The notes under the pieces were generated by a model that worked only from the letters and a program-made list of their open reading frames with translations, had not been told where the DNA came from and searched no databases. Made by a program: the position numbers and the translations under genes. A stretch of 64,000 nt of DNA from assembly GCA_008632985.1 (NCBI GenBank), contig QPGO01000193.1, forward strand, positions 62,001 to 126,000, written 5' to 3'. Positions 1-63,480 of this stretch are shown in pieces; the stretch's first letter is position 1; each line of letters opens with the position of its first letter. Source of the DNA: Psammoneis japonica. Taxonomy: Eukaryota.

Positions 1-739
1 AACGAAAATTTCGACATTTCACACAACTCCCAGCAGTTGCAGCCAGCTGGCTGGAACAATTTGACTGAATGTTTTTTCAATGTTCATCCGCTGCATTCGA
101 ATTCATGGATTTTTGCTGTGTGTGTGGCAAAAAAAAAAAAGCCGCTGACCATGGTGAGTTCGCAGTTGCGTCGTCGTCCATGTTTGTGTGGGAGGTTGCA
201 TCGGTGCATGAGTGTCTCTGTGTTTTCCCTGTCAGAAGGCATCTACAGTGCTGTGGTGCAACTTCCCCCAAATTTGATTTGATGGGTCATTTCAACATTG
301 CTGCTCATTCATTTGGCATGTTTTTGCTGGTGTTTTCTGCTGCCACCAACAGAGTGCAAAGAACGATGAGGCACAGCCATCAGAAAGAGACAGCAGTCAG
401 CCAGGAGCACCAAGTTGTAAAACCACAGACAGAAAAATTGCCCAACCCTTCCACCTGCCTCTCATGAGCTTCGTCAAAAGAGCGCTTCTCTTCCACCCAG
501 CTGCTGCTTTGGTGGTGCCTGCTCCAGCTCCAGGGGGAACAAAATCATCCCTCAATGTCCTTTTTCAACGTCGACAATTGCAAACAAAATGAGATGCACC
601 CACATGCAAAATGCAGCACATTTCATGTGACTGCATGCCGTTTCTTTTGAAAATTTGCACCCCAAAAGTGGAGAGTTTGAGCGAGACAAACAACGCTCTC
701 TTGCCAAATGCTCAAAAGCATTCCACCTGCAGCTGGAAC

Positions 740-1150
740 AGGCCTGGCACCTGGCACCTCACCAGCCTTGAGCAAGGATCTTCAGGTCCCTTGTTGTTTG
801 AGAATGACAAGGCAGCAATCTTGTCTGATGATGTTGTACAACCCTTGGCACTGCTGGCCTGGCTTGTGCCACGATCAACCTTGAATGAGGTGCAAATGAC
901 CAAGTGCACCACCCCAAGCTTGTCAAAGCATCCAGCACTTGATCCACAAGTTTCAAGATTGAAGCAATGAAGGCAGCTGATGAAAGTCTTGTTCTGCTCA
1001 CACCCAACCCACCCAACACACAAAATTTTCTTTTCTTTCAAAGCAAGGAGCATTTTGCTCCATCCCTGTGGTGAGTTGGATGTTGGCCTGGCGAGCACTT
1101 TCTGCTCCACTTTTTTAGCACAACCATTGAATCTGATGTTTCATCAAGAT
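740..1150 (-). pseudogene. Fragment of SF2 helicase (HA-helicase family), motifs I-Ia region
   Basis: Frames give 'PQGWSKMLLALK', 'ILKLVDQVLDAL' and 'CTTSSDKIAA', matching 'PPGWGKTPLALK', 'PTLKLVDQVLD' and 'CTTSSDEIAA' of the copies at 11-13.7 kb and 23.7-26.4 kb; frameshifted. Confidence 0.75.
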
Positions 1151-1282
1151 GGCTGTTTGCCATTGACAGCTGACTTGGCTTTTTCTTGAAAAGCACTTGC
1201 GCTGCTGTTCCTGGTGTGTTGTCACTGATGGTTGTTCTGCCCCTCACATTTGCTTGATTTCTTTTTGACAACATTCCCATGG

Positions 1283-4200
1283 AGCAGGTTCTGAGCCAGT
1301 GCATGGGACAAGCACTTGAAATGTGTCTTCACTGCACTGCTGACATGTTGCTGCACCTTGGAAATGAGTGCGCAGGCATCACAAAAACAATGGTTGGGAA
1401 GCAGCCACTTGTGCAAGCAACCCCAAGCACCATCCACTCTGTTTCAAACAATTGTGGGACAGCACCCACTGGAAGCACCAACAACAAGTGAGTGCATGGC
1501 CAAGTGCAACAACTCATCAAAAATGGAATTGCTTTTCAATGCACTGCCACTTGACTGCACATTTTGACAACCTTTTCACAAGAGTCGGGGCAAAAATGTG
1601 GGACACAAACAGTCTGTTCTCCATGTTGTTGTAGAGACTTCAGTTCTTGATCAGTTGAAGAAATGCAAGATCTGCAACAAAGACAGCCCACTCAGCCAGA
1701 GCATCAAAACATGGTCTCAGGAGATTCTGAAACCAGACTTTCCTGGTGCAAAAGAAACTGCAATGCCATCGGCAAAAGTGGCAGACCATGTCAGCCAAGA
1801 AGTGCTCAATTTGCCAGAACATGCAATCAAATTGGAGAGTGTCAGACAACTCATTTCATGCAAAGAACCTCACATTTCAAAAATGGCTTGGTGGGGATGA
1901 TGTGGGGAGCACCATTGCCAAAGCAATTGACATCTCGCAGATGATGCAGCAATGGCTTGTAGAGCCACTTGTTCACTTTCATTTGACAAGGGCCCTCTTG
2001 GCCAGTGATTGCTGCTGCAGCATTGTTGATTTTGCATGTGTTTCATCATCATTGGCTCTCCCCCCCCCCCAACTTGCAATTTTGGAATTGTCCTTTCCAT
2101 GAGCAAGGGTCTGCTGTTGAGCCAAAATGCAGCACAACAGAAGCAACTCATTTGCATGAGATGTTGACAAGTCCAGCTGAAGTGGCAGATGACCATCTTT
2201 GATTCCAAGGTCAATGTCCAGCAACTTTCTTTTCTTGTTGTCATCTTTTCCACCATTGGCACTTGGTGGTTGCCTCCTCCCCATGAGGCGCCCCCTTCTT
2301 TAGAAGCCAAATGTGCACCTTGGTGATGCCAACCGTCAAATTCTGCACTCCAACTTGCTCTGCAACTTGTTGGATTGTCCGGGAGATCTGGTGATCCTTG
2401 TGGCTGCTTTGCAATGTCCACTGGGGAAAATTGATGTGTTGAACACTTTGAGAGAAATTTCTTGCAGATGGGGATCCATCTGATTGCTCTCAACCCAAGA
2501 TGGGTGAAGAAGGAATGGATCTTTCATTGACCCCACAAGAAGCAAACAAGAAGAATGCAGCATTGCAGGATGAGCTGAAACGATGCTGTTCCAAAGACTG
2601 CAGCTTTGCTTCTGATGACTTGGGATGTGCACACTGCTCCAGAAGAACTCGACAAGGAGCTGGCATGCATGAAAGGTCAACCGGAGTGCAAAAGATGGGA
2701 AGAAATCATGGCAGCACACCCAAAACCAATCAAAGGGAGTTTGAATGAACAAGGCATCAAAAGTTCACTGACTTGCACTGGGAAGACAAGCAATGCAAGC
2801 AATGGATCCAAAATGGCCAGAGTTGCAAGACGCGTTCCAGCCCCAGGTGGGACTCCGTGTGACATTGGGCCCGTAGAATTCTACGTGCGAGCTCCGTAGT
2901 ACGAGAATTTAATTAATGGATATATTTATCTTCAACATCAAATAAACGGCCAAGTTTGTGGTACAATTATGCCTCTTGCCACTCGACGTTTTTGCAAATA
3001 CGCCTGCCCTACGCGATTCTTAAGACATTATAGAATCGCGCTGTAACAAAAAATGTCAAAAGTTATTGGACGGATCGCTCAATAAGTGTACCGTAAAATG
3101 ACACAAAATATCGAAAAAATCACGTAGAAATCTACGTGCGCGACATACGACGTGATTCAAAAAACTATCGATGTCACAGTTCAGTAGTACGAGGTCCCAC
3201 CTAGACCTGGAACGCGTCGCAAATGGAAGAGTGCAAGGTGCTAAATCAACAGTCTGAGAGGGCCACAAAAAAAAGCAAAGACTTTGAAGCAAAACTGAAA
3301 GCCAAGGTCAATCAAGATGTCTTCTTTCAGTTGGCCAACATGTCCATTCCCAGTTCATGTGCAAGTGTCCAATTGAGTGCAAGCAGCAACATGTTGTTCC
3401 GTCTGCGGCTGTGCTGCCCTCCCCTCTGTCTGGGGATGCTTCCTCTGCACACTCCGCATGATCATCTGATGCATCTGCTTGGCATGGGCTGACAGGATTC
3501 ACTCAATCCCAACCCCCTGGCCACCAGTTTTTCTAAAACAGCAGTGCATTGACTCATTCTGGCAGTGCACTTTAGATGTTGAAATGCTGCATGCTGTCCA
3601 TCCAACGACTGTTCACAATTCTTCAATGACTTGTTCAGGGAATGCTTGGGGCTTTTGGATGGTTTCCTGTGACTCTTCTTGAAAGCATCAATGCATTTCC
3701 TCTCAATGGCAGACAAAAATGTAAACCATCCTTGCCCACAATTGATGGATGAAAGTGAAAATCATCATTGCCTCTTGTTTCATGCCCAGCAACAGCCTTG
3801 AACACTTGCACTCTTGCAGGCTTTGTGTTGTCCCCTGAATGCATGACCAACAGCAACTCCAGGTTGATTGCACTTCATTGTCTGCCATCTGTCTTGGAAG
3901 GTTCAATTGTTCCGTTCAATGCCAAGCACACAACATGCACACATGTTTCATCATCAAGTCAGTTTTGACAGTGTGTTGCATCAGCAATGATTCCTGCTTT
4001 CTTCAACAGTGCATGAATCAAATCAATTGCAGTTCTGTGTTCTGTCCACCTGTTGGCTGAGAGAAGCTGAATTCTTCATCCCCATCAGAGATGCAAAGTG
4101 TCTTGAGATGTTTTTGCCTTTTTTTCATCTTCTGTCAAAACTGGTGCTGGGGAAAAAAGTGGTGTGGCCTTCAGATTGAAACTTGAGCCACCACAGTTGG

Positions 4201-4929
4201 TGGGGGTGCTCATTTGTTCCACAGACTCTGATGCCAGAGTTCTGCGGCAACACTTTCTGCCCTTGCCTCTAAAAAAACCTTTGACAATTCTGACAAGCTG
4301 GCTCATGTCAGTCTTTTGTCAGATGCATTGCCACGTGGCTCTGCCTGTTGTTCTCTGGTGGCATCATTGTCTGTTGTGACTGGTGATTGTTCTGCAACCG
4401 GCTGCGGCATGGGCAAAGCTGGTTGCAGCAATTTTGAAGTTCCAACAGCTGCTCATGCATGCATTTCATGAATGGAAGCCTTTTGCTCATTCAACACGCA
4501 AATGCTTTGTTCATGTGTGCTTTTCTCCCATTGTGGGAATTTGTCCTGGCAGCTCTTCTTGATCTTCTGCTTGGCGGCATCCATTTTGAAAACAGTTTGG
4601 ACATTCCAAAAAATGTTTTGCCAACTGGCATCACAACCGAGCATGTGATGTGGCATCTTGCATCCACTGCATTCCAAACCAAGCACTTGAATGATTGAAA
4701 GGTTGATTTTGGGATCAACAAGATTGGCCTGCCTCTCCAGGGTCATGCTGTGCTTTGGAGCCACATTTTTGCATGCTTCCATGAGTGTCTCCATTCAACC
4801 TTGGTGCAACTGATGAACCTGACATGTTTCATGAAATCCAAAACATGAGCGTGCACTCAAATGCTGTTGGATCACATGTGCAAGGTTTGGCAGTCATTGT
4901 TGCAATGGGCGCAGCACTGCAAGATGATG
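1283..4929. repeat. Dispersed repeat block, copy 1 (unclassified)
   Basis: Collinear and highly similar to 13816-16608, from AGCAGGTTCTGAGCCAGTG to CAAGATGATG; this copy additionally has the MITE and ~540 bp (about 3946-4484) absent from copy 2. Confidence 0.9.
2829..3218. mobile_element. 390-bp MITE-like non-autonomous DNA transposon, 25-bp imperfect TIRs, 4-bp TSD (GCAA)
   Basis: Left end GACGCGTTCCAGCCCCAGGTGGGAC; right end reverse complement GACGCGTTCCAGGTCTAGGTGGGAC (22/25); GCAA at 2825-2828 and 3219-3222; the paralogous empty site at ~15421 reads AGAGTTGCAAATGGAAGA with a single GCAA. Confidence 0.92.
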
Positions 4930-6161
4930 CGTTGGTGGCACTCATCATGCATCATGGGGGTGCGCAAGTTTTGTGGTGGTTTGGTGGTTTGCAAAAGTCA
5001 GTTTTCAACAGGTCTCGCACAAAGGCCAGACAAACCACACTGAGCAGGGTTGCTTCTCAGATGAACTGATGGTGTTTGACCCAAGAAAGCCAACCCACCC
5101 ACCTCCTGCAGTGACCTTGCATTTTCAATCAAGTTTCCAGCCCTGCATTGGAGCCAACCATCACATTCTTGACAGCATGATGGATTCATTGTTGGGGCTG
5201 TTGACCATTTTGAGAAGCACTTCACAGGAGGCAGGTCTGCAGGCTGCTGGGGGACACGAACCTCTGCATGAGAAGATCCAGGTGCAAAGGCAAAGCAATG
5301 TGACAAAGACAGCTGTGTTCCAAAAAAAAATTTCTGCCATTGCTGATGTCACAGCATGTTTTTGTCTTGACAAAAAGTGTGAAAAATGGTGGAAAAGACC
5401 AGCTTTCCAAACATCCAAAAAACAGCCGTGGGCTCTTTGCACTCTGCAGAAATGGCACAACCAAATCTTTGGCACTCATGCAGATCAACTCAAAGGCAAA
5501 GATGGGCATGGTCATTTTGGTGTCAACGCCCCCCCCCCCCTTTTCACAGCAGCTAATTTTGTGGCATCCTTGAGCAGCAAGCAAAGGAAAAGTGGTGCAA
5601 TCTTCAGAAGAAACACATCTCATTCTCTTGCAACATGTGAAGCATCATTTGACCATTGTTGTCAACACCCCACCGTCTCTGCCATGAGTCAACATGTTGA
5701 CAGCACTGCTGCGCACACTTTGCAGGCTCATGATGGAGAGATCTCACTGCTGTTTGGGAGCTGATGTCAAGACTGGCTTTTCGTGGACTTTGTCAGCCAT
5801 CACACAATCACACAATGTCATGTCAATTGTGTTGGGTGCTGTGACACCTGAAAATTGTTGCTGCACAATGACCTCCAATGTGTTGGCATTCACAAGGGGG
5901 TGTGGGTGGCCATCAAAAAGTTGCAAATCCAGCCAGCAAAAGCCAAACAGGAGGTGCCGCCATCTGAGGTTGGCAGCACAGCTGTGAGATGTTGTGCAGA
6001 AATGCAAGTGGGAGGCAAAGTGGGCAACAAATGATGCAGAGTTGTGGCTCAACCAACCTTCCAGCCAACACATCATTTGGAGCTTCTTTGCTCTCCATGT
6101 GGAGGCAAAAAGTGCCTTTTTTGTGTGCATTGTGCTTTTGCATGCCCAGCTCATTGCATTT

Positions 6162-6168
6162 GCAACAA

Positions 6169-6203
<35 letters not shown>
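6162..6203. repeat. (CAA/CAG)n microsatellite
   Basis: GCAACAACAGCAACAGCAGCAGCAGCAGCAACAACAACAACA seen directly. Confidence 0.9.
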
Positions 6204-6206
<3 letters not shown>

Positions 6207-6931
6207 AAGACAAAAACAGTGTCGCGCTGAGCTGAGTGTGACCAACCAGCAGAGCTGAGCAAAACAAGTGCACACAACTCACAATTGCCAGAGGAGACAG
6301 AGAGAGAGAAAGCAAAGCAGAAAAAGTTTGAGGCAAAATTTCTCTGGGTTGTGTTCATTGTCCACCCTGCATCGACCCTTTCTGCGCACGCAGTTGTCCA
6401 TGTTTCCTCCTTGTTGCCAAAGGACTGAGAAAGACAATCAAATGCTGAAGACAGGAGCTCCTGCAAACAACCTGTGATGATTGCTTTGATGAGAGAGCAA
6501 ATGAATGACAAAGAATGACGCAAGTGAGAAGGCTGTAGAACAGGACTGAAAACCATGGTTGTCATCTGTCACAATGCCTGGGTCACCTCTGCGGCGGTTT
6601 CGGATTTTCAGGTGTGTCCTCGGTGTGAAAATTTCACAAGAACACTGAGTCAAACGTGTGTCCTGATCAAAAACAGCATCGCTTGCAGGGCCAGCCGCCA
6701 TCAGCACACCCAGTTTTCAGCATCACAGCAAACGGCGAAGGAAAATGCAAAGAGGTGTGTTGTGTGTCGTTGACAAGCCATTTCTGCAACTCTCTCTTTC
6801 GAGCAATTACATTGTTGAGACGAGTGTCATTGTTGGGGTTTTGTTCGACTGGTGCCGTGTTTTTTAAGAAAGGTTTAGACTTCATTGCTTAAAGCTGGAG
6901 TCTCTCACCAAGTTCCTTTCATTTCTCCTGC

Positions 6932-7812
6932 ATGACAACACAGAAGGCGATTTATGTCGCCACAGGGGAGACTGTGAGGTTGTGTTTGGGCCAGATGAAG
7001 CTGTGCACTGAAACCCCGAGCATGCCCAGCCACCAACATTCTGACGTGCACTGTCTTTTGAAAGCTGATGGATCAGAAGGACTCGATGATGCCTTCCCAG
7101 CTTCCATGGATTGTTTGCACAAAGAGTGCAATGCAACTTTGGATCTTGATGCTTCTGCTGATCGGTCAAACAACCTTGGTAAAATCTCTGAGGTGACCAT
7201 CAACAGCTCCTTGTTCGGAAAGAGTCTTGGTGATGCCTGTGGGTTGGAGAACGAAGAGGATGGTGCGCAAGTCACAGTGGCACCAAACAAGATGGTCAAC
7301 GAATGCGTGAAGCCACCCACGATGAACGCCACGGTGGCGATTAAAACTGCAGAGCCCACAACGAATCATGATGATCAATCCATCCCTGTGGCAAACCTTG
7401 TTCCTGTCCAACCAAGGCCGGTCACTCCTGACAAATCGCCCAGCAACAAGTGTCAGGCATCCAAAGCAACTCCACCCTCTGAAAAGCACAGTGGAGGACA
7501 CCTTTGCGGCAGGTGCCAAGTGAAAAAGAAAGGACACGACTGCCCGCACAAGCACAAAAAAAAACTCCAAGGAAGTGCAACCGCAAGCGCAAGAAGTCAA
7601 ATCCAACCAAGGATTGCCCAGTGAGGGGGGCTTGCTGGTGTCACGAGTGTGACACCCCAAAGAAAAACCACATTTGCATGCAACTCCGCCAAGGTGCTAG
7701 CCTCGAAAGCCAGATGCCCATTGTCGCACGAGCTTCTAAAGGTCAAAAGGCGATGGTGGCTTTTGGAAGCAGTCACATGCGACGTTTGCCACTCTCATGG
7801 TCTTGTGGTTGA
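6932..7812 (+). pseudogene. Degenerate gene with two CxxC-x-(K/P)K(K)-xHxC zinc-knuckle-like motifs
   Basis: 'GGHLCGRCQVKKKGHDCPHK' in the 6932-7624 frame and 'GACWCHECDTPKKNHIC' in the 7504-7812 frame; a frameshift separates them; lies in TA-depleted DNA. Confidence 0.5.
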
Positions 7813-8061
7813 CAGCACCCCGCTCATCGTTTTGTTTCGAAGATGACAGGATGTGCTGTCCAACAAAAATGAGAGAGGAAGACACATGCATGTGTTTTTG
7901 TTAAAGAATGCAATTGTCAATTTCTCCGTCACGGGCGTCAGGAAGATGAGGGACAAGGAGATTTCTCTGACGCCATGGCAGATCTGCCACGGCACAACAA
8001 GCAATCAAGAACACTGCCAATCCTGAGTTGAAGGCAGAAGTCTCTGAGCAATTCAACTGCA

Positions 8062-8304
8062 TCTCGATGCGCTCTCTCATCAGGCGAAAGCAACGCAAAT
8101 GCGAGAAGTTGGAAGACCACTTTGTTGTGCATGCTTGCAAATGCACGGTCATCGAATCGAAAGAAAAGACCTGCACTTTCCAAGGCAAGGCACACTCCTT
8201 TCGAATCCTCTGTGTGGCAGTGCATTCTCAAGCATGCACAACAAAGAGGTCTTTCAACTTCTCGCATTTGCGTCTCTTTCGCCTGCCGAGAGAGCGCATC
8301 GAGA
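8062..8304 (+). repeat. Long inverted repeat / hairpin (85-bp arms, 73-nt loop)
   Basis: 8062-8146 is the reverse complement of 8220-8304 with about 8 mismatches. Confidence 0.9.
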
Positions 8305-8898
8305 GGCGGCTGGGTTGCTTCAGTGCAAGAACGCCGCCACGCCGTGAAAAGAACAAGCTGCTCCACTGTTGTCATGTTGATTCTTTTGCATTAATGACAA
8401 ATGGACAAGCTTTCATTGGCAAACAGTGGCATCTTTGCTGCCGCTTTGATTGCTTTGTTTCGTGCTGACATTGTCGATTCAGTCGTGGGTGTGAGTCGTG
8501 CATGCCTCCACGTGCCGTTCGCTCCATGCCCATTGGCAGATGCGCACACAGTAAGCAGCAAAATTGGTCAGCTATGTCACAGGCACTCACTTGTGCACGT
8601 CTGATGACCGTGAATGAGAGCATACAAAGGATTCAATTCATTGATGTAGCTCTGGTTGCGTCACTTCGCTTCGACTTTAAGTTTCATTCAGTCGTGGATC
8701 AATCCGTCCATCCGCCACGTGCCAGTCGTGCGGCGAAGAAGAAGGAGTGGATCATGGGCATGACGCCTCACAGTGATTCACTTGTGCACGTCGGACGACC
8801 TTGATTGCACTCCTGATGATGTTTGGATTTCCACTGGTGGTGTTTGAAAGCCACATCTTAAAAAATTTGTGTCGTGACACGACGGGAGACAAAAAATC

Positions 8899-9641
8899 AT
8901 GACGCCTTCACGGAGTGTCGCACTCTTCCTGTTTATCACTCTCGTCTTGATACGGTTCTGTACAGCGCAAGAGGAAAGCAAGAGCAACTACACAATACTA
9001 TCCATTGTTGCGGCGAATGCACCTGTTGACTGGGAGACGGTTGAGTCGTTCTCACAATCCAAAAGCTTTTCTTGGAATGTTCGTGAAATCGAGCTAGAGG
9101 GGTTTGGTGAAACTATGAAAGCAGAGGGTTTTCAGGCTGCGCTCGATCAAAGCGATGTCACTCTAAGAGATGCAACGCTGGAAATACGACCCGACCTGCT
9201 ACTCGTTGCCTCCAAGGGTGTTGGCATCCTGACTCATCTCGCCATCAAGGGCCAATGGCGTGGACCGGCCGTACTTCTTTCTCCAATCCCGAACGCTTGC
9301 AATCATGTTGACGGCGGATCGTGGGAAAAAGAATGGCAGTCGACACAATGCAAATACTCACGTCAAATAACATTGGTCCAATCGCGATTGGAGTAGGTTC
9401 CAGTTCCGATGAGCAAGACCTTATTGTCAAGGGAATTGAAGAGACAACCGTATGTGGCAAGCTACACCGAGACCGTCCAGTCTTTGAAACCTGCCCATCC
9501 TATTTCGTTTTATCCTTTGACGGCAATCATGGATGGAAGAATCAACCGGAAAACGCTCAAAACATTGCCTTGCTGCTTGATCTTGCCTTGACAGCCTGGG
9601 AGCGATCGATAATGTTGGTCTCGGCAAAGGAAGATCTTTAA
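8899..9641 (+). CDS. Secreted alpha/beta-hydrolase-fold-like protein, one frameshift near 9345
   Basis: N-terminal signal peptide; 'PDLLLVASKGVG' nucleophile-elbow-like segment and 'WRGPAVLLSP'; continues in the 9321-9641 frame to 'FDGNHGW'; normal TA content. Confidence 0.6.
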
Positions 9642-11009: not shown

Positions 11010-13725
11010 TCATTGTCGAAAGCTCCACCGAACGCCCAAATCTTCCAAGCGCTTCTCATGGTCTCGTTTAAGTGTCGCCGTTTTCCTCGACCTGCGCTGC
11101 CAACTTAACCAATGTCCAAGATTCTTTCCGTCCTCCTTGTGCTTGAATGGAACATAACAACCCCCCTCGCGTTTCTTGTGTTGGACGAGAAGCTGAAACA
11201 TTTCGTCCCACTTTTCAGAAGCAACATTCCAAGAAACGCCAACGTCTTTGAGACGTTCCTCCAGAACACTGTCTAGCTTCCCGGCATTCCTCGCAGCACG
11301 CTGCCTGTTTGACCACTTTCCAAGGTTCTGTCCATCCTCTTTGTGCTCTCGTAGAACGTTGCAACCCCCCTCGCGTTCTTTACACTGAATGAGGAGTCGA
11401 AACATTGCTTCCCATCTTTCAGAACCAACATTCCAAGCAATGCCAATGTTTTTGAGACGTTCCTCAAGCGCGCTGTCGAGCTTTCCAGCTTTCCTCGTTT
11501 TACACTGCATGCTCATCCATGCTCCAAGGTTCTTGCCATCCTCTTTGTGTCTTTGTGGTGCGTCGCAACCCCCTCGCGTTTCCCACATTGGACGAGGAGT
11601 CGAAACATTGCTCCCCAATGTTCAGAAGGAACATCCCAAGCAACGTCAACGTTTTTGAGCCGTTCCTCAAGAGCACTGTTGAGCTTCCCCGCTTTTCTCA
11701 TTTTACACTGCCAGCTTGGCCACACTCCAAGGTTCTTTCCATCCTCGACATGTCTGGCTGGAACACTGCAGTCACCCTCTCTTTCTGTGCAAACCAAAAG
11801 CAATGCATGCATTTGATCCCAAAAGCTTTCGCGGTTCTTGCACTCCGTGATTGCTCGATTCATGATGTCGTTCTTCAATTCAAGCGGCATTGAGTCTGGG
11901 AGCATGAATGATTCAAGCACCCGAGAAGGAAATTCCACGTTGCACAAAGGCCTTCCGAGTCTAGCGCTCTTGTCAATTACAAACACGACATCCTCCCGCA
12001 ATTCGGGATCTAGTCCGACCATTGCATCGAGTGCCAATGTGAAAGATTCATGGCCACCTTCATCTTCCATAAATTCAGCATCACCAGTTGCAGGCAAGGG
12101 TGCCAAAACGTGTCCACGCTCTTTGCCAGGAGCCTTCTGGCTGACACGTCCAATCATTTGGCGCGCATCAACGGCACTTCAGACCGGATCTGCCATCACT
12201 GCTAACTCCCAATCTGCCTCGTCCATGCCGGTCGCCAATGCTCTGCAATTGGCGACAATTGATTTGGTTGCTCATTTTGCTCTTGACAAGATTTCTTCCC
12301 ACTTGGCAGGTGACATGTCCGAGCTGCCACTGACAGCAAATGCGGTGACATCGTCCTTTTGCGCACAAAAGCATGAGCACGGCAGTTCATGGAATGAAAC
12401 GACACAGCACTGCTCACATTGAGTTTGTGAAAAGCCACTTGAATTGCAAAATGGGAGTGGGTAGTTCTTTGAGAGTGCCCTCGGGATGGAATCATCAAGG
12501 AGCAGATCAGCAAGAACTGCGTCGATTTCATTGGCATCCAGTGCACAAAGTGTGATTGGAGCAGTGACATTTTGGTTCACGGCATCACTTGGCATCCGTT
12601 TCACGAGGCAACAAGGTTGCACTGTCAAAACTGCGGACACCAGTGGCCTTTTTGGGCTCTGAGCTTTTGTTGGGAATGAGCGTTTGCGAGCCATCCTCAC
12701 AAAGCTTGCCACTGACAATGTCAACTTGTTGTGGAGCACCCGTGTGTCAACGTGGAGCAGCAGTTAGAAACAAGTGACAATCAACTGGGATCAATGAGTC
12801 ACAGAGACCACATCCAGACAGTTTGCCAATCCCTTCCATCTCGTGCGCCTCATCAAATGCGGCAAACCCAATGGCAACACCTGGCTTCGACAGCGCCTCT
12901 CCAACCTCAGGCAATGACTTGTGAGTGCAGCCAATGAAGGACAAGCCATCATTTTTTGAGGACAGAAATGCCGCAATCTCGTCAGAAGATGTTGTGCAAT
13001 CCTCAGTGCGATTGGTCTGGCTCGCCACAATCAATCGTGAATGAGGCACGTGATCAAGCACCCCAAACTCATCCAGGTCATCCAACACTTGATCAACGAG
13101 TTTCAAAGTTGGTGTGGCACACACATGGCCGATTGAAGCATTTCTCTGCGCTTGGACCCATTCCATCCATTGCAAACTTTTTGATCGACTTGAGTGCAAG
13201 CAAAGTTTCGCCCCATCCCGGTGGCAGCTGGACGTTGGCCCGGCGACCACCTTCTGCCCTTCGAGATTTCTTGTTGTTGTGAATGTTCTTTCCACTTTTT
13301 CCTCCATCCCACTGTGCAGGCGCTCTGCAAAAGTGCCACGCAATCAAATCTGAAATGTCATCGTGACGATCATCTTGCTGTTGACACTCGTCTTGACAAT
13401 TTTCTGATGCACTTGCACTTGTTTCTGATGTTGTTTTATCTTCTGCTCTCAAACAGCTGCAACCTCTGTGTTCTTGACATCCTTTCTTGGAACGAGCTCT
13501 GTGATTGTCAAACTTGTCCCCTCCAATGTCCTCTGGGATTGCTTCGGCCTTTGCATTTGCTGCTGCATCATTCAAAGCCTTCGCTGCTGCCACCACGCTT
13601 GCTGCCTGATGCGTGGAGGCTGTCGTCACTCTTGAACGGCTTCTAAACAGCATGGATTGAAATTGAAAAGACCCACTAAACTGCTCCAGAGTGTAAACGA
13701 GAAAAATGCAGTGGCAGTTGTTCAT
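11010..13725 (-). pseudogene. SF2 (DEAH, Res-subunit-like) helicase with C-terminal HA-domain repeats, copy A
   Basis: Motifs QLPPGWGET (I), PTLKLVDQ (Ia), AAFDEAH (II), LFLTAAPR (III), QMIGRVSQ (VI), then ~4 'W..MF.LL...K.REG.C.VP..H.EDGKNLG.W...QR' repeats; several frameshifts and stops. Confidence 0.88.
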
Positions 13726-13815
13726 GGTTGGCATGTGATTGAAGGCACTGTCCCAGGCATCAATCAAGTTCAAAATTCGAAAAATGGTTGAACGCCGCAA
13801 GGCGCTTTCCACGCA

Positions 13816-16608: not shown

Positions 16609-16687
16609 GTTCACGTGTGGCACATTCAGCACATCAGTTCATGCCGCACTGTGCATCTTGGTTCACTGACTCATCTCGCTCTAATCG

Positions 16688-50189: not shown

Positions 50190-51440
50190 GACGGAGGTGG
50201 AGAAGGAAACAAGATTCACAACAACAAGGAACAATCTTGAGCTGAAACAGCAAAGCAAAAGTCACTGGGCCAACATCCAGCTGCCACCGGGAAGGGGCAA
50301 AATGCTGGTCGCACTTAAGTCAATCAAAATGTTTGCATTGGATGGAACAGGTCTGAGCTGATCTAGACTTCAGTCTGACATCCACATCACTCCAACTTTG
50401 AAACACTCGTGGATCAACGAGACTTGGACAGGTTCAAAGCACTTTTTCACATCCCTGACTTGCAATTGATTGTGGTGAGCCAAGCCAACCAAATTGAGGA
50501 ACATGCACAACCTCTTCTGATGAGATTTGCAGCTTTTCTGAGATCCAACACAAGCAGATTGTCACTTGTTTGCTGCACTTGCAGATCCTCCTCGCCCAAG
50601 GTTGGGGTGTGCAATTTTTGATTTTTGATGAGGTGCATGAGATGGAAGGGATTGGCAAATTTTCTGGCTTTGGTCTCTGCAACTCATCACTTCCAGTTAA
50701 CTGACACTTGTTTCCAACAGATGATCCATGTCATTGTGCACAGACAATCCCCAACAGATTTAAGTTGGTGGCGGCAAGCCTTTGTGAGGATGGCTCACGA
50801 ACGCTCATTTCCCAACAGAACTTCCAAGCCCAAGAAGGCCACTGGTGTCCGCAGTTTTGTTGACAAATCATCATTTGGCCCTTGTTTTGCAAAACAGGTG
50901 CTGAGTGATGCCATGGACCAAAACATCGCCACTCCAATCACACTTTGTGCACTGGACGATGATGACAAAATCGACTCCTTTCCCGGCGATCTGCTCGTCC
51001 TTGATGATTCCATCCCGCCGGCACTCTCAAAAGATTGTTTGCTCTCATTTGCAGTTCAAGTGGCATTTCACAAGCTCAGCGTGATTGGTGCCATGTTGTT
51101 TCATTCCATGAACTGCCTTGCACATGCTTTTGTTCATGATGCAGTGCTGGTGCTGGAGAAGGATGATGTCACAGCATTTGCTGTTTGCGGCAGCTCAGCA
51201 GACATGTCTCCTTCCAAGTGAGAGGATGTCTTGTTGAGATCAAAAACAGCAAGGAAATCAGTTTAAAAAACGAGAAGGACAACACAAAGCTCCTTTTTCT
51301 CATGTGGGGTGTGGAGAGAGTGGGAAAAAGCTCGGGTGCTGGTGGGTGAACAAGAAGCAGCACAAGTTGAGAAAAGCCAGGGAACTTGATTGATTGTGAC
51401 CACAAGAACAGGCTTGAGCAGGTTGGCATGGAGTGGAGCT
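50190..51440 (+). pseudogene. SF2 helicase/HA family relic, copy E, internally deleted, in TpA-depleted domain 49700-51560
   Basis: 'ANIQLPPGRGKMLVALKSIK', 'DEVHEMEGIG', 'GPCFAKQVLSDAMDQNIATPITLCALD', then a jump to the HA tail 'HKNRLEQVGMEWS'. Confidence 0.85.
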
Positions 51441-51897
51441 TGCATTTGGCAATGAAGCAAACAATGAATGCATTCTTTGCCTTCTCCCATTCCATCTGAT
51501 GAGTGCTCTCTGGCATCAACTTGTGCACTCGAAAACTCAATCAATCGGTTTCCGTGTTTTCAATTTCTAATGGTTGCTGCTCTAGGCTCTAGAGAGAGAG
51601 AGAGAGAGAAAGCAACTCACGAGCTCGTGGCTCTAGAGAGAATAATGTCGTTGTAGACCGGCGCATTCTCTCTCGAGGGGGAACACACCGAGAAGCAAGC
51701 GGAAGGACCTGTGACGGATGACGGACGCAACGCAGCTTCGACCGGTTGACGACCGCGGCCGAACAATGCGCAATGATGATGCGCTTTGATGTAGAAGTTA
51801 GAAGTAGGCCATGAAGGAAAAACAACGCTGTCTCGCCTTATCAGCAGCACAACTAACGTCCTCTTCTAGCTAGAGAAAAGGAATTCTTTTGCAAATA

Positions 51898-55363: not shown

Positions 55364-58279
55364 CTTCTTGTCTATCGTTTATCGCTCCTTCAGTAGGATC
55401 TAATGTATAACTATACTTGTACCAGAGTGAGGTAACCTTCCAGGTTGTGTCTGCGATCGTGTCAAAGAAAGAGCGAAGAATGGAGAACGAATGCACTTTC
55501 ACTCTTCTGCATTCCAACGGTCACAACCCAAGACTCTCGGTACTGAATCCATACCCAATCCCGTGCAAGTTTACGTGATCTCTCGTGGTTTCTCCGAGAC
55601 GTTGACCATAAGTAAACTCACATTTATTAGTCCCTACAGGTTCGCGAAGCGATTCGTAACTCCTACATGCTCACACGGTATTGCGTCGCCAAGGGTGCCG
55701 GAGGGCTGGGATGGTCAAGAAGTCCTCCATTCGTCTCATAAACATTGTCAAAAGGAATGGACAAGACGATACGATCGGATCGAGCTTCTCTTCCAAACAT
55801 TTATCAAATTGATAGTTTATGGTAATTAACGCCTTCTCTTTCCAAGAATCAGCATAAATAATTATTTCATTCAGACACTCTATTGCCCAGAGGAATCTAC
55901 TCGAACAAAGTGACACTTCAGAGTCTCATAAAAGTGATACTCGTTAAGTAAGTAAAGAAGGTAGTACACGTGTCACACATAAAAGACTTATTACGCTCAT
56001 TAGTAAGAGTGTCACGTTGGCGATTGTTGCTTTCAGGCCCTTTGTGTTTGCAAGACACTTGTCATCAGAATCACTTATGAAAAAGAAGCTCTATTCTACT
56101 GATACTTCATAGTACGAGGTCGTGAAAAGAAGAGATCAGGATTTTGTCCAATCCACAGAGAATTCCACGTCGAGCGTTCTTCGATCTTCTTCTGTTCGTT
56201 CGACGCACGGCAAGTTAGTCGTAGAAATCGGATTGCGAAGCCAAAATGACTTGCCATGATGGTGTGCGTTGTTCCTTCAGCAGTGAAGCGTTGAGTGTTG
56301 CGGATGCTTGACTTGAACACAGGTTTAACCACAGCAAACAACTGCATTGTTCATGTGCAGAATGAGTGTGAGATGTTCCTCCACTGATTCAAATGACTGC
56401 ACCCTGTCTGCTGCTTCGCCAGGCCCAGATGCCTGTGTGTTTTTGTCTGAGAGGAGCTCGAGCAAATTGCCTTCACATTGGCTTCAGCATCGCTGGCGCT
56501 ACATTGAGAAGACTTGTGAGTTTCAAAGTCAAGCCCACAAATGTTGTCTTTGTGGGAACCCCACAGGTCCTGCTGCTGTGTCCAACAAATGAAGCTGCCA
56601 GCCAAGCCAACAGAGCCGCTGTGCCCCCCAATCCACCAACCACCATCATGTTTGTCGTGGCTGGAAGAAAGAGTTTGATGAGCACCGCTGCTGGCCAGAG
56701 GAAGACATGAGGCTGGAAGCTTCACATCAATGAACTGACTTGCATCATTTGGAAGCAACTGAAAAACATTTTGCAGCTTGTGAGCAACAAGACAATCTGC
56801 TGGGAGAAGATGCATGATTCGAGAAGCACAAGTCTGGCTCACATGAAGCACACTTTGTCAAGTCTTTGCTTTTCCAGTTGTTTGCCACCAGCTCAAAAAT
56901 CTGCCACACACTGTGTTTTCATTGTCACTTTTCTTTTGTCAAGAGAGGTGTCTGGCAGTGCAGTGGCACAACAAAGTTGGGCCGTGGCAAAAAAAAACAA
57001 AAATGCACTGTGTGTTTTCCTTGTCAGTTTTCTTTTGCCAAGAGAGGTGTCTGGCAGCACAGTGGCACAACATGGTTGGGCCGTGGCAAAAAAACCAAAA
57101 ATGCATGGAGCTGCTGATGCTTGAAAAAGAGGACATGAAACAAACAAACTTTGGGGCCTGCTCTCAGCATGCAAGGTGCTGCCAGCTGGAGCAGAGAAGC
57201 AGAGAACAAGCCGGCACCATGATGTGAGTTGTTCTTTGTTCTTTGACATGCTGTTTTGTTTGCCACAGACAAGTTTTGTGTGCAGCATCACAGAAGTGGG
57301 GCATTGCAGCAGAGAAAATGATGACAAGGCACACATGAAACAAGAGAAATTTTCAGACTCACGGCACTTGGTGTGCCTCATGATGCTGCCCTCCTGCCTC
57401 CTGCCTGTGTTTGAAAATGAGCTCTGCACTGAGGATCATCAAGTGCACTTGATGTCTCAATGCACAATGACCATGAATCCAGATGACATGAGATGCTGAC
57501 AGCTTGGAACAATTTGGGTTAAAATGAGAGCTGGGGACAAAACAAAGCTGGCTTCTTCTTGGCAGAAGTGTCTCTTTCAAAACTCGTGCTCATTTGCATG
57601 GGCGCCAGTTGCCACTCTTTTTTGCATGCTGTGCTGCTCCCCATGTGTTGTTGGAAACGGTCTCTTCTTCCTCCTCTTCTTGCCTCACCACAGCCCTCTG
57701 TGCTGTTGAGAGAGAGCTCCTGTGTCATGAGCTCCCAGCTGCCCACTGCTGACTGTGCAAACAGTGGAGCAACGAGTGCAGCAGTGCACAGAGAGCTGAG
57801 TTGTTGGGCAGAACACAAAAATTGCCAACTGCAACATTTCCCCAAGTTGCAGCAAATTGCTTGTGATGAAGATCTGTTGACAGTGATTGAAAGTGGCCTC
57901 AGCACACACAAAAATGCAGAAAGCAAAAGGGCGCACCCCATGAAGGTGGCCTCAAACAAGGGAAAAAGCACTCCACATCAACAAACCCTGTCAGTTGTTC
58001 AAGACAGATTGCCAACACTCACAACAAACTGCACTGAAGACAGCAATGAGAAAACCTCTCTCTTGGTCAATTGGTGCGGAACTTGGAAGAATTTGAGATG
58101 ATTGTTGGTTGCTGGGGGGAAACTGCCCAGCAGTGCGTGCACATTCAGAATCAAACCGTCATTGTTTCCCTGTGGAATTTAATGTTCTGAACAATCCAAC
58201 CCAACCAATGATCCATTTGCTGCAGAGGAGTTGATGACCTCACACTTGGCAAACGTCTCATCAACACAACGCTGTGAGA

Positions 58280-58536
58280 TGACAGGATTTGAACAGGATT
58301 CAGGTGCGTGCGAAATGTCGCGCACAGTTTTGTGTGCTCTAGTTCCACGCGTTCGCGCGTGATGCAGTTTGCTTTCGAGCCACAAGGCTCACAAGAATGA
58401 CAACAGCAGCCCGATCATGCCGACTTGCACGTCTTTCGGCTCCTGCAACGGTCTCTGAGCGGAGACTCATCTGCCATTTAGACAGCAGCAAGGAGTCATT
58501 GTTTGAATTCTTGCCATTTGCCTTCAATTTCTGTCA
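58280..58536 (+). repeat. 5' LTR (257 bp)
   Basis: Direct repeat of 61521-61796; lacks a 19-bp segment present in the 3' LTR. Confidence 0.93.
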
Positions 58537-59490
58537 GATTGACAGTCTTGCTCATTGTCAACCCATTGAGCAACCGCCATCGTCGTCGTTGATTTACCAA
58601 CGATGCCACTTCAATTCTGCGTGGACCTCCGTGTGTGCTCTACATGCATCGGCAAGTCTGCGCGCATTCAATGCCAGGCATCGGCAGGAATTTAACATCA
58701 CCGTCAAGTCTCCTTGCCGCTGGATGTCTGGATTGATTGTGCTGCCTTTGATCGCTGAAGACATGCATCAATGGTCACATCCAAGTCTGTCCTTGATCCT
58801 CATCCCTTGGCACACCCATTCATTGGTCAATGGTCAAGAACCCCACATGTTCAAGGATCTTCGTCGCTGAAGACACACACATGCATGCACATCTTCACGG
58901 CCAAGAACTTGTGCCCACTCTTCGGACTGCGGTTTTGCTGCCACCCTGCAAGCACACTGAGTCCATTGCACCTGATCTGCCCCAGACTGCTGGTGCTCTG
59001 CAGTTCTGCCAGGTCCACGAGGACGACTGTGAGAGCAAGTGGCCGTGATTGCAGCCTGCGTTGGGGCGAGGGTGCTTTCCCGCGTTTGTTCGTTCGTCCA
59101 CAGCGCCTGGCGCCCACGTCAACTGGCCAGCCTGATCGGGAAATCCAACCGATGTAAAACAAGAACGGTTTGGGGGTCTTGTCCACCTCCAGTCAGCTCA
59201 CCTGCAGGGGTTTACAACCCGCCACTCCGCTCACAAGCAACCCAAAGCGCCACCAGCTGCAGGTTCGGACGTGCCGGCACAACTCTACGGACCGGATGGG
59301 AAGTTTAGCACTTGACAACGAACGGGGTGGCACAGCCCGGCGACTTCTGATTTTAAGATGGTCCAAGATTTCAAGTCAAGTCCAGCTCAAGTCAAGTCTT
59401 TTTCAAGCCAAGTTCCAAGTCAAAACTCCGAGTCAAGATCGCGCTCTAGATTGGTTCCTGTCTTTTGTTTCTACTGCACCGTCCTCCGTC

Positions 59491-61454
59491 ATGGTTCTCA
59501 CGCGACAGCAACAAACTGAAAGCTTCAAATACATTCTAGGCACTGTGCTCAATCAAGACGATGACAGCCCTCTTCGTTCTGCCCTGTCCATCAACGGGAT
59601 CGAATCGTGCGAGGATTGTTCACGTTCTTACCCACCCAAATTGACGCCCTCACTTGCAGAGACGGCGCCAATGTAGTGCCTTTGCCACGGACCCACAGAA
59701 ACCTCCTAGCAGCTTTGATCAGCTTCTACTTTGTCAAAGTTTGCAACGGTGATGATGTGACCAATGAACCCCAGTTGCTCACACCCGAGGAATTTCGCAA
59801 CTGCCGCCTTGGTCCGGACTACTTGACCTCTCTAGCCACTGGCGCAGCACCCTCCGCACCTGTGCCGAGTCCCTTGCCATCCAAACCAGGTGAACCCAGT
59901 GCCATTTTGACACCAGCCTTGCACTGTGCTGCCACTCAGGTGTCCCCCAGAAGTGGTGTCAGTCGCGCCCCGCATGTCTTGACCAACCCGCCTGCAAGCA
60001 ACCTCGGCCCAGTGCAGGATTGCAGCCCTTGCACAGGCCCACACTTCGAGACCAGTTGGGACACTCCACCCATGGCTTCCAAAGCTGCAGTCTTTGCACC
60101 CCGCAAACCACGTGCTGCCAACCTCCACGTGTCGACCGCTGTCACCCTTCACAGTCTTCGTTTGGGAAGTGATGGAGGTGACAACTTGCTTCTCGCATCT
60201 CCTGATGGGGAGCCTCCTTTTCCCGTCATTGAATCTGTTCACAACAGTTCAACCAGTTCATCAGATGGGGAGTTCAGGACATCCAAGCAGCTTTGTTGTC
60301 TTCGGATCCTCCAAGCATCGCACCATGAGACCAGGCCTCCTGATTGGATGCCTCAAGTCTCGCACCCCGAGACTGGGCCTCCTGATTGGATGCCCCAAGT
60401 CTCGTACCTCGAGACCAGGTCTCCTGATTGGATGCCTCAAGTCTCGTACCTCGAGACTGGGCCTCCTGATTGGATGCCTCAAGTCTCGTACCTCGAGACT
60501 GGGCCTCCTGATTGGATGCCTCAAGTCTCGTACCTCGAGACCAGGCCTCCTGATTGGATGCCCCAAGTCTCGTACCTCGAGACCAGGTCTCCTGATTGGA
60601 TGTCCCAAGTCTCGCACCTCGAGACTGGGCCTCCTGATTGGATGCCTCAAGTCTCGTGCCTCGAGACTGGGCCTCCTGATTGGATGCCCCAAGTGTCGTA
60701 CATCGAGACTGGGCCTCCTGATCGGATGCCCCAAGTCTCGTGCCTTGAGACCAGGCCTCCCAACTGGACTCTCCACGTCTCGTGCCTCAAGACCGGGCCT
60801 CCCAATTGGATCCTCCACGTCTCATACCTCAAGACTCGGCCTCCGGATTGGATCCCTCAAGTCTTGCGTCACGAGACTCGGCCTCCTGATTGGATCCCCC
60901 AAGTTTCGCACCTCAAGACTTGGCCTCCTGATTGGATCCCCGAAGACTCGTGTCACAAGACTGGCAAGTCCTTTTGGATCCCAGAAGTCTTGCAGCACGG
61001 GACTGGTTGCCCCAATCAGACATCTGCAGCCTTGCACCACAAGACGTCTTGCTCCAATCCGATCCCCAAAGGCTTGCACCTTGAGACTCGTTTCTCCAAT
61101 TGGATCAGTCTCTCAGGAGATGCAGCTGAGCTTGCAATTGGATTGGTGGAACACAAGACCACCGCTTGTGCCTTTGAACTCATGCTTGCTCTGTTCCCCA
61201 AGTCGTGCAAATGCCATGCCGCCTGCAATGTTGCCCCGCCGTTCAACATTGTCAACCAGACCAAGCTTTGCTCCTTCCATTGCAAGTGCGGATGTGGAAT
61301 CCCACAAGATCCCAAGTGTGCCTTGAGCTTTGAAAAGCACAACGGCATCTGCAATTGGGGAGACGCAGCTCATCTCAAGATGACCCACTTGGAGAATGCA
61401 ACGTTGCTCTTGGATCTTGATCCTTTCTTGTCTCCTCATGTTTTGGTGCTTTGA
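59491..61454 (+). pseudogene. gag-like N-terminus fused via a 14-aa repeat array to a pre-RT pol fragment; frameshift ~59615
   Basis: 'MVLTRQQQTESFKYILGTVLNQDDDSPLRSALSINGIESCED/LFTFL..LTPEEFRN.R' resembles diatom copia gag starts; 'NQTKLCSFHCKCGCGIPQDPKCALSFEKHNGICNWGDA' resembles the 'YKYG.E.P....A...D..NGN..W.DA' segment preceding copia RT (family consensus recalled, not searched). Confidence 0.65.
60327..61110 (+). repeat. 42-bp tandem array (~15 good units to 60956, ~4 degenerate), encoding ET(G/R)PPDWMPQVS(Y/H/C)L
   Basis: Unit GAGACTGGGCCTCCTGATTGGATGCCTCAAGTCTCGTACCTC repeated head-to-tail without spacers. Confidence 0.95.
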
Positions 61455-61520
61455 CTCCAAAGTTCTTCAGTCAATCCGAAGTTGAATCTGTTTCTGTGGC
61501 TCCTCAAGCAAACTGGGGAG

Positions 61521-61796
61521 TGACAGGATTTGAACAGGATTTAGGTGCGCGCGAAATGTCGCGCGCTGTTTAGTTCACCGCCCACAGTTTTGTGTGCTTT
61601 AGTTCCGCGCGTTCGCGCGCGATGTAGTTTGCTTTCGAGCCACAAGGCTCACAAGAACAATGACAGTGGCCCGATTGTGCCGACTCACACGTCTTTTGGC
61701 TCCTGCAACGGTCTCTGAGCGGAGACTCATCTGCCATTTAGACAGCAGCAAGGAGTCATTGTTTGAATTCTTGCCATTTGCCTTCAATTTCTGTCA
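61521..61796 (+). repeat. 3' LTR (276 bp)
   Basis: Direct repeat of 58280-58536, preceded by GGGGAG. Confidence 0.93.
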
Positions 61797-62249
61797 TGAG
61801 ACACATGTTGTGTCACAGTGGTTGCACGTCAATTGGAGTCAAAGGTGTGCAAGTGCTGCAAAGAAAGCTGCTTCAGTCCACTGCAACATCACCCAGTGGC
61901 ATGGGGGGAGGGGCAGATGTGGAGCAAGGGTGGAACTGAGTCACATGGGTGGGAAAAGGGATGGATTTCAAATTGGGGTTGGAGAGTTGGGATTCAATTT
62001 GGTGGAGAGCAGCGGGTCAACTGGTCAGTGAGTGATTTGGCAATTGCAAGGCTCAGGCTTTGAAGGCCCCACTGCAATGGAGTGGAAGCATGGTGGGTTG
62101 AGCCAAAGCATTTGGCAGCTGTTGTGTTTTGCCAAGCGGCAGCAGCAGCGGGGAGAATGGCCGACAGTGACAGTGGTCCAGGGAGGGGCTGGTGCTGGGG
62201 CAGGGATTGGGTGTGTTCTTGGTTGGCACCAAAAAGGAAGCAGTGAGCA

Positions 62250-62720
62250 AAGCAGCCAGGGGCTCCCAGACAGTCGACAGTGATTGGAATGAGACAAATG
62301 CCAGTGTTGTTGAGGGCAGATGCAAGAAGGGTTGCTGGCTGGTGGCTTCGTGTTGGGTTTCATGGGTGTGCCGTTGAACAACTTCCGTTTGGTGCTCACA
62401 TGGTGTGCCTCAGTGTGAGGGTCAAGGGTGGGGGCAGGCAAGCCAGGAGCAGGCAATGGAGGAGGTTTGGGGATGGTGATGTCGATTGCAAGGCAGCGGT
62501 GTCCGAGAGAAGAGGCTTCAGAGGCAGCTGGGGTGAGCTGGATGCCCACATCAGCAGGGCGCTTGAGGGGTGAATGGGGCATCAAGTCAGCAGCAGGTTC
62601 ATGGTGGATGGTGGATGAGCATTTGCAGATGCTAGATGGAGGGGCGAGTGTTTGGAGAGTCGCGCACAGGCCGTCTCGGATGGCGCTGGACATGGTTGTT
62701 TTGTGTCCTGGGGATCGGCA
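62250..62720 (-). mobile_element. Relic of the restriction-like endonuclease domain of a CRE/R2-type non-LTR retrotransposon
   Basis: 'AIRDGL..L....EP..LMP..P.KRPAD......LAIDITI' matches the H..IRD / RP(A)D / D(V/I)T pattern of RLE domains. Confidence 0.55.
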
Positions 62721-63480
62721 GCAGAAAGCGTTGTGATCTCCATGGTCTGGGGGGTCGATGGCACCAGTGGTGCAAGAGGGGGCAGGAGATGGATTGAAGC
62801 TGGTGATTCGAGATGGGGAGCCGTAGTTTGCGTTGTAGCATGAGACGGAACTGCTCGGGGTTCAGGAGTTGCTTGATTCTTGTGTGAGTCGTGAAGTGCC
62901 AGTCCGACGTGCGTTGAGCAAAATTTTCTACAGTATGTCTGTCTGTCGTTTTCTGAATAGACGGGACTTGCTCAATCTTTGGTGGCGTCTCTACGGCTGA
63001 CTCAACGGACGAGGCTATTCAATGATGTTATACAAGCTTTTAGGTGATATTCTCATATCATAGTTCTTTCAAATGATTAGTATCGATTTGGATGAGCCAA
63101 AATCTCAATAATGATCTTTGAGTACGTATGAGTTAAAAATAAAATATTTGTCCAACGGAAGTATGCATTCAACAATCTCTGAATGTTCTGAAATTCAAAT
63201 GCAGTGGTCGCCATGCTAAATCATTATAGAGTGTTTTCGATACCGTCCGAATTATTCCTTGATGCAAGGTGAAAAACAGTTTGCAGAAGTGGACACACTA
63301 ATCGATTTTCACGTGAGCACAACGTGACTTGCCCCAAAAAATGAAAAACACTCGCATCGCCGCGTTATTGCTTCTCACGACCCCAACAAGAAGCTGAGTG
63401 AACCGTAACTTGTGTATGCTATGATGGCTACGAACATCAATTGAGTGTGTTACTGTGCTATACCATCAGACTTATAGACA

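Follow-up and report, generated by a model that had tools for sequence, protein, structure and literature searches.

The DNA analysed here, 64,000 nucleotides of contig QPGO01000193.1 (positions 62,001 to 126,000; hereafter the window, numbered from its own first base), contains genes that are long and uninterrupted as well as domains from which the dinucleotide TpA (TA) has almost vanished. This report describes the TA-depleted domains, the duplicated sequences that some of them hold, and the candidate process that would have emptied them, a hypermutation of TpA to TpG or CpA. The proteins of the window resemble those of diatoms: three protein searches yielded no near-identical match, the best ones reaching 47–53% identity, and the named eukaryotic top matches were all from diatoms, namely from Pseudo-nitzschia for an HA protein and from Cylindrotheca, Synedra, Nitzschia, Epithemia and Thalassiosira for a transporter.

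The window was segmented with a two-state hidden Markov model (HMM), whose observations were the pyrimidine-purine (YR) steps, each scored as TA or not TA. Seven depleted segments were returned, summing to 32,108 of the 64,000 bases, i.e. half of the window, with TA accounting for 1.0–3.5% of the YR steps inside the segments and for 15–21% outside. They correspond to six domains, the first being split in two around a 370-bp island, and are listed below without strand, with the TA and YR counts of the model (o/e, observed/expected ratio).

3..2873, domain 1, left part: 7 TA in 674 YR steps; TA o/e 0.035 and CG o/e 0.20; holds repeat A from 1274
3247..8931, domain 1, right part: 23 TA in 1386 YR steps
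11158..21580, domain 2: 35 TA in 2533 YR steps; repeats B and A′, followed by 5 kb of unidentified sequence
23682..26314, domain 3: 22 TA in 622 YR steps; CG share 0.223, a normal level, not depleted
42771..44726, domain 4: 6 TA in 480 YR steps
49618..51562, domain 5: 8 TA in 463 YR steps; holds the inverted helicase fragment B″
56229..62823, domain 6: 37 TA in 1554 YR steps; direct repeats resembling long terminal repeats (LTRs) and a 42-nt tandem array inside

Over the whole window TA occurs 1514 times (o/e 0.35), with o/e values of 1.45 for CA and 1.44 for TG; by 500-bp windows, the TA o/e is 0.00–0.10 over the domains and 0.4–0.9 across the intervening genes. An earlier sequence-only reading had proposed six TA-poor domains set among genes of normal TA content, with 2 TA in bases 1–600. 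The domains, the normal neighbours and the count of 2 were all recovered, and the proposed limits were mostly close to ours, except that domain 2 starts at 11158 rather than 11400 and domain 3 at 23682 rather than 24450. Domain 2 does not begin with a sharp step: across HA repeats on its left side, the TA o/e declines gradually through 0.56, 0.29, 0.19 and 0.13 over 10001–12000. No terminal inverted or direct repeats above shuffled controls were detected at the domain ends in a purine/pyrimidine alphabet. As a control, 20 related metagenome loci, gene-rich contigs retrieved with the MFS alignment and all of normal TA content, were run through the same HMM, which called no depleted segment in any of the 20 (135 kb in total); they serve as a control and say nothing on absence from other diatoms. 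Related metagenome loci were also sought with the HA protein, and none was found.

Comparison of the pooled domains (30,828 bases) with the pooled normal stretches (30,795 bases) revealed where the missing dinucleotides went. The domains contain 134 TA, 715 CG, 3218 TG and 3312 CA, compared with 1325 TA, 1623 CG, 2370 TG and 2257 CA in normal sequence, so that TA makes up 134 of 7379 YR steps (1.8%) versus 1325 of 7575 (17.5%; Fisher P ~1e-262). The total of YR steps is nearly constant (23–24% of dinucleotides inside, 24–26% outside), and against a decrease of 1191 in TA and 908 in CG stands an increase of 1903 in TG plus CA, both products being enriched 1.7-fold; TpA was destroyed rather than created. 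TG and CA are balanced in the pool and in each of the seven segments, and AA, TT and AT are retained at o/e values of 1.26, 1.24 and 0.87, as the earlier reading had noted. Because the YR sum is constant, TG equals CA approximately and AA, TT and AT are kept, the composition of the domains is what would be expected from transitions confined to YR steps on both strands. A finer balance of trinucleotides by 3′ base failed to close, since genes are a poor baseline for the ancestors of repeats. Two candidate causes fit the dinucleotide figures poorly. GC-biased conversion would not spare AA, AT and TT, and an error-prone polymerase of the Pol-eta type, which the earlier reading had offered for A>G changes at WA and which would strike TA and AA alike, is disfavoured by the AA o/e of 1.26 inside versus 1.14 outside the domains.

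The two losses could be separated. CG o/e is 0.20–0.48 in six of the seven segments and 0.85 in domain 3, where a TA share of 0.035 coexists with the normal CG share; no segment in the window has lost CG without losing TA. Since domain 3 lost TA yet kept CG, the TA loss is independent of the CG loss. The latter, in most domains, is ordinary CpG decay of the kind caused by deamination of 5-methylcytosine, which likewise leaves TG and CA as products and matches the CG loss observed, but which cannot remove TA.

The duplicated sequences were delineated mainly by self-comparison of the window, and the features used in the following analyses are given below (strand or orientation where one was assigned).

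1274..4933, repeat A: paralogue A′; 92–96% identical to it, 96–99% in the purine/pyrimidine alphabet
13806..16611, repeat A′: paralogue of A, from self-comparison
11016..13730, minus strand, repeat B: decayed superfamily 2 (SF2) helicase plus HA-repeat gene, with HA and helicase Pfam matches and tblastn matches to helicase-HA homologues
23681..26406, minus strand, repeat B′: same gene as B and 84–85% identical to it; HA Pfam match of 201 bits, traces of ResIII and Helicase_C
25613..25615, minus strand, TGC (Cys) codon of B′, aligned with CAC (His) in B: all 41 homologues have Tyr at this position
50205..51263, inverted, helicase fragment B″: 1 kb, matching B and B′ at 70–71%
58271..58536 and 61512..61796, LTR-like direct repeat pair in domain 6, from self-comparison
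60178..61107, 42-nt tandem array in domain 6, from self-comparison
2829..3215, 387-bp insert resembling a miniature inverted-repeat transposable element (MITE): terminal inverted repeats of ~24 bp, empty site in the paralogue at ~15430

Identity between B and B′ rises from 85% in full letters to 94% in the purine/pyrimidine alphabet, and that between A and A′ rises likewise, showing that most of the divergence in both pairs consists of transitions; the B/B′ differences also include indels and 118 transversions. B′ can be read in one frame against homologues of 1453 aa, with five in-frame stops (four TGA and one TAG), and the start of domain 3 at 23682 falls within 1–4 bases of the start of the B/B′ homology (23681 or 23678). 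At its HA-repeat end (23678–24520, minus strand) B′ has an intact open reading frame (ORF) of 280 aa, which contains 4 Tyr and carries four strong HA repeats (201 bits), whereas the helicase part upstream of it is broken and devoid of Tyr; the HA tail may be under continued selection or may have been less heavily hit.

That the domains coincide with repeats, as had been proposed, holds for parts of them. Paralogues were identified for A, for B and for the LTR-like pair, while domain 4 (42771–44726) has no paralogue inside the window. Over 16700–23600 the contigs of sequencing run X1 have a depth of 55–69, with multicopy depth (437–680) only at 18317–18778 and 19934–20395, and most of 16700–21500 is single-copy by this depth at a likeness of at least 90%. 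As paralogues and multicopy depth cover parts of the domains only, so does the status of repeat. The equal offsets of A–A′ and B–B′ suggested a simple tandem duplication of 12.6 kb; this was not established, because a transition-blind self-comparison yielded no further homology between 4934–10000 and 16612–23300.

The B/B′ pair allowed the direction of change to be determined. Its transition rate is 0.15 at YR sites versus 0.05–0.065 elsewhere (P = 1e-13), and the YR sites comprise 40 that are TG in one copy and CA in the other (TG/CA-discordant), 71 with CG versus TG or CA, 20 with TA versus TG or CA, and 6 with TA in both. The expectation that paired copies differ mostly by such TA/TG/CA/CG swaps was borne out in part, with YR-site transitions accounting for 171 of the 393 substitutions that separate B from B′ and for 59 of the 123 that separate A from A′. 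A TG/CA-discordant site implies an ancestral TA or CG that was resolved differently by each copy, and these two ancestors can be told apart from the protein: with 41 helicase-HA homologues as outgroup, an ancestral TA was scored at codon positions 1–2 as Tyr-like and at positions 2–3 as Leu/Ile/Val-like, an ancestral CG as Arg-like and as Pro/Ser/Thr/Ala-like, respectively. Of the 21 discordant sites at these codon positions, 11 had TA-like, 2 CG-like and 8 ambiguous ancestors. The control classes behaved as expected from their letters, with TA-like to CG-like ratios of 1:11 for CG/CG, 2:7 for CA/CG, 2:5 for CG/TG, 5:0 for TA/TG and 2:0 for TA/TA, and the discordant sites differ strongly from the CG-containing classes (11:2 versus 5:23; Fisher P = 8e-5).

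Tyrosine codons tell the same story. None of five conserved Tyr columns keeps Tyr, versus 50% retention at other conserved columns, and the Tyr codon that is invariant among all homologues now encodes Cys in B′ and His in B, in agreement with the earlier remark that conserved Tyr codons appear as Cys or His. Tyr is entirely absent from the helicase part of B′ (472 aa), compared with a median of 1.64% among the homologues (n = 41, P = 4e-4), and among 290 database proteins there was no Tyr-free relative (lowest Tyr content 0.34%). From the polarisation of discordant sites and the changes of Tyr to His or Cys, it follows that TA was once present in family B and was converted independently in each copy after their divergence. 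The assignment of TG or CA to the copies shifts along B′/B (23976–26083), being 12:9 in the first 21 discordant sites and 2:14 in the last 16 (post hoc P = 0.007); this may be a trace of strand-biased episodes.

Such independent conversion bears on two other explanations. The first is that these families never had TA, whether by intrinsic composition or by selection against it, e.g. through TA-targeting insertions or nucleases. Pair A conforms to this, sharing 584 of 599 TG/CA states, so that its TA-poverty is older than its duplication, and for family B the idea has to face two copies in which shared ancestral TA sites had different outcomes (11 TA-like versus 2 CG-like), an invariant Tyr that became His in B but Cys in B′, 41 intact homologues of normal Tyr content, HA repeats of the same family in normal-TA sequence at 10388–11013, and a YR mass balance that holds. 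An intrinsically TA-free family is thereby ruled out for B, the explanation is largely refuted there, and overall we consider it very unlikely. The second is an artefact of assembly or base calling at a modified motif, which is barely credible. Although the sequencing platform is not on record and run X1, possibly the source of the assembly, is not fully independent of it, the X1 contigs (word depth 55–69) match the assembly with 1 substitution and 2 indels in the 6.9 kb of 16700–23600, in depleted and normal parts alike, while contigs of run X2 cover there only 21551–23167 and none of the depleted part. Besides, transversions (118 in B/B′), indels and in-frame stops are typical of old pseudogenes, and a fixed base-calling error is hard to reconcile with homologous sites that show different outcomes in B and B′.

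A process of this kind has one precedent. The 2026 preprint of Mettrop et al. (bioRxiv 10.64898/2026.01.13.699255), in its available text, describes, for Bigelowiella natans, TpA to TpG/CpA hypermutation that arises de novo in integrated viral DNA: in mutation-accumulation lines, 231 of 302 new substitutions fell into integrated nucleocytoplasmic large DNA virus (NCLDV) and virophage sequences, almost all of those viral substitutions being A>G or T>C, all of these at TpA, and confined to a subset of the lines; across the genome, 124 clusters depleted in TpA and enriched in CpA+TpG were reported, and an ADAT2-like protein was proposed as candidate enzyme. The same text makes no mention of diatoms, flanking context or CpG. 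In the literature searched, no other description of TpA-specific hypermutation was found, and a paper on diatom DNA methyltransferases (PMC9998398) mentions, in the part available, repeat-induced point mutation (RIP) only for fungal DNMT4 relatives. The proposal of the sequence-only reading that the phenomenon was undescribed has therefore been overtaken by the preprint.

The balance of TG and CA also bears on whether the change occurred in DNA or in RNA. Hyperediting of repeat transcripts from A to I by an ADAR- or ADAT-like enzyme, followed by reverse transcription and reintegration, has in its favour that both ADARs and TAD2/TAD3 editing in fungi favour a U immediately 5′ of the target A. 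The ADAR preference is also remarked on in the Discussion of the B. natans preprint (10.64898/2026.01.13.699255), as far as its available text shows. Editing of transcripts predicts TG far in excess of CA on one strand, whereas the two are about equal in every domain; family B, a duplicated helicase gene, lacks the hallmarks of a retroelement; neither a reverse transcriptase nor an integrase domain was detected in 185 ORFs from the domains or in the read-through frames of 16612–21580; and the depletion tracks the limits of DNA segments. Editing at the RNA level is hence highly improbable, and a DNA-level process is the better description.

Two features within the domains inform on timing and preference. 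The 387-bp insert in domain 1 contains 30 TA, matching the roughly 30 counted before in the MITE, and with a TA o/e of 0.98 and a CG o/e of 1.59 it has been touched by neither process; as both dinucleotides are normal, it is a recent arrival in hypermutated DNA. The surviving TAs of the domains, in turn, are unusual in their flanks: an A on the 5′ side or a T on the 3′ side is present at only 15 of the 134 (11%), versus 694 of the 1325 TAs of normal sequence (52%; P = 7e-22), ATAT occurs 97 times in normal sequence and 0 times in the domains, and the best survivors are TTAA, TTAG/CTAA and CTAG. The baseline in this comparison is genes and not the true ancestors of the domains, but an alternative baseline, new TAs arising from the TG and CA of the domains themselves, gives ~41% with a 5′ A or 3′ T, still far above 11%, and thus the flank effect stands. 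Because a strand-level model of it failed and the TG/CA labels form no runs, as detailed below, the effect seems to belong to the site and not to the strand. In the 42-nt array, five consecutive units keep a TA at an identical position (60405, 60447, 60489, 60531 and 60573), reflecting either expansion of the array after depletion or a resistant context.

As TpA reads the same on both strands, a T>C change and an A>G change on the opposite strand look alike in sequence. This leaves room for a different chemistry, in which a TET/JBP-like enzyme oxidises or hydroxylates the thymine of TpA to 5-hydroxymethyluracil (5hmU) or 5-formyluracil, or a glycosylase removes it in error, with C as the outcome of reading or repair. 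In the DNA of dinoflagellates, 5hmU occurs preferentially at TpA and TpC, and 5-formyluracil forms mispairs with G; the strand symmetry fits either chemistry, and a flank effect at the level of the site accords with modified thymine. The sole experimental precedent, in its available text, proposes deamination of adenine (10.64898/2026.01.13.699255), itself a proposal, and speaks against this route, which we judge unlikely.

Our preferred explanation, to which we assign a probability of roughly 80% as a whole, is that the domains are old, mostly unrecognisable repeated DNA of a diatom-like nuclear genome, one family of which is a duplicated and decayed helicase/HA gene, and that they were rewritten by two processes confined to YR steps, TpA hypermutation and CpG decay. 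The second, strand-symmetric process at TpA that the sequence-only reading had called for is borne out by the mass balance, the equality of TG and CA, the 11:2 polarisation and the loss of Tyr. At the level of DNA, hypermutation would convert TpA to TpG by A>G on one strand or to CpA by A>G on the other, would have taken more than 90% of the TA relative to the flanking genes, and would have removed ATA/TAT-flanked sites most completely, and ordinary decay of CpG to TpG/CpA, of the kind that deamination of 5-methylcytosine causes, would also have been active in the older parts. The agent may be a polynucleotide adenine deaminase acting on DNA, by which A becomes inosine and is read as G; it would be targeted to duplicated or silenced DNA and would act in episodes rather than being permanently on.

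Several results weigh against this explanation. In pair A, the YR states are TG/TG at 291 sites, CA/CA at 293 and TG/CA at 15 (584 shared, 15 discordant), and the surplus of transitions at YR sites falls short of significance (P = 0.11); family A was TA-poor before its duplication, and the direction of change assigned to it is an analogy with family B. The polarised sample is small, with 13 informative sites from one family. No transposable-element or viral Pfam domain was found in the 185 ORFs from the domains (35 + 150), and no Pfam match of any kind in the six read-through frames of 16612–21580, the only stretch that was read through. The strand-level flank model, in which TAT would give TGT more than CAT, was not consistently seen, with inconsistent ratios, and strand-coordinated runs of TG or CA were not detected in the domains (runs-test z from −1.25 to +1.66). 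The agreement of the assembled bases with run X1 has to be read with the partial independence of that run in mind. Finally, the unmutated young insert inside domain 1 means that the process does not hit all of the domain now; this insert and the shared states of pair A argue for episodic rather than constant activity.

Compared with known systems, the window is a further case of the TpA hypermutation of B. natans in a different lineage, and far more saturated; by analogy, the process here would be the same kind of event. On the available text of the preprint (10.64898/2026.01.13.699255), the two share TpA-confined transitions that give TpG and CpA, seen here as an evolutionary footprint and not as de novo mutations; sharply local clusters, depleted in TpA and enriched in CpA/TpG, with normal neighbours in our segmentation; apparently episodic activity; and a proposed role in genome defence. 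They differ in host, which is a diatom-like stramenopile here and a chlorarachniophyte there; in saturation, the TA o/e of 0.03–0.15 here contrasting with a Rho of 0.45 in the NCLDV region; and in recognisable target, with unidentifiable repeats and a duplicated helicase/HA pseudogene here, in which no viral or transposable-element domain was found, and integrated viral DNA there. The CpG decay layered on the TpA loss and the ATA/TAT flank effect are likewise features of the window and do not appear in that account.

With fungal RIP the process has in common that dinucleotide-specific transitions strike DNA which, here at least in part, is repeated, and wreck its coding capacity, and that one domain (domain 3) begins within 1–4 bases of the start of a duplicated sequence. 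RIP, however, makes TpA by C>T at CpA, while TpA is destroyed here by A>G, and the host is not a fungus. The process can also be set beside the TadA/ADAT tRNA adenine deaminases and the hypermutating deaminases of immunity, APOBEC on retroviral DNA and ADAR on viral double-stranded RNA, which share with it a motif-specific deamination able to disable genetic parasites; unlike APOBEC, which acts on C, and ADAR, which acts on RNA, the change here would be A>G at the DNA level, and unlike ADAR-type editing fixed by retrotransposition it leaves TG and CA equal, with no reverse transcriptase or integrase domains in the domain ORFs and read-through frames. The targets of ADAT/TadA have U before the edited A, but to our knowledge none of the natural anticodon contexts of ADAT places U after A34, and the context most thoroughly removed in the window is TAT.

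Some further observations concern the genes and the assembly. Among the ORFs of at least 150 aa, 36 of 67 touch depleted segments, most of them lying wholly inside, and the domains contain long meaningless ORFs of up to 629 aa, e.g. 59565–61454 and 4928–6568, because TAA and TAG stops are nearly absent from TA-free DNA. Outside the domains, 31291–34566 (plus strand) holds three overlapping long ORFs (396, 460 and 310 aa) of normal TA content without a Pfam match; together they may form a single large gene, specific to the lineage and interrupted by introns or changes of frame. A single N at 36504 stands between exact 103-bp duplicates (36401–36503 and 36505–36607, 100% in the purine/pyrimidine comparison), and this looks like an artefact of assembly joining inside a TSP_3-repeat gene.

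A broader proposal can be put forward tentatively and at somewhat doubtful strength: TpA-directed hypermutation may be an ancient defence common to the stramenopile-alveolate-rhizarian (SAR) supergroup, found in diatoms and chlorarachniophytes alike, a mirror image of RIP that would sense duplicated DNA, host genes included, erase TpA to saturation with a preference for ATA/TAT, act before and independently of methylation decay, and be driven by a DNA-acting adenine deaminase. The saturated footprint in a diatom-like genome would mean that the process is not peculiar to one alga, that much of a genome can be rewritten by it, as in the affected half of the window, and that it also hits duplicates of cellular genes and not viruses alone. 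It gives comparative leverage on the enzyme, through deaminase families common to diatoms and Bigelowiella. It also sets two traps for annotation, since TA-free DNA yields long false ORFs and the change of Tyr to Cys or His hides transposable-element ancestry, and it is relevant to how base composition, mutation bias and transposon control are modelled for an important group of marine primary producers.

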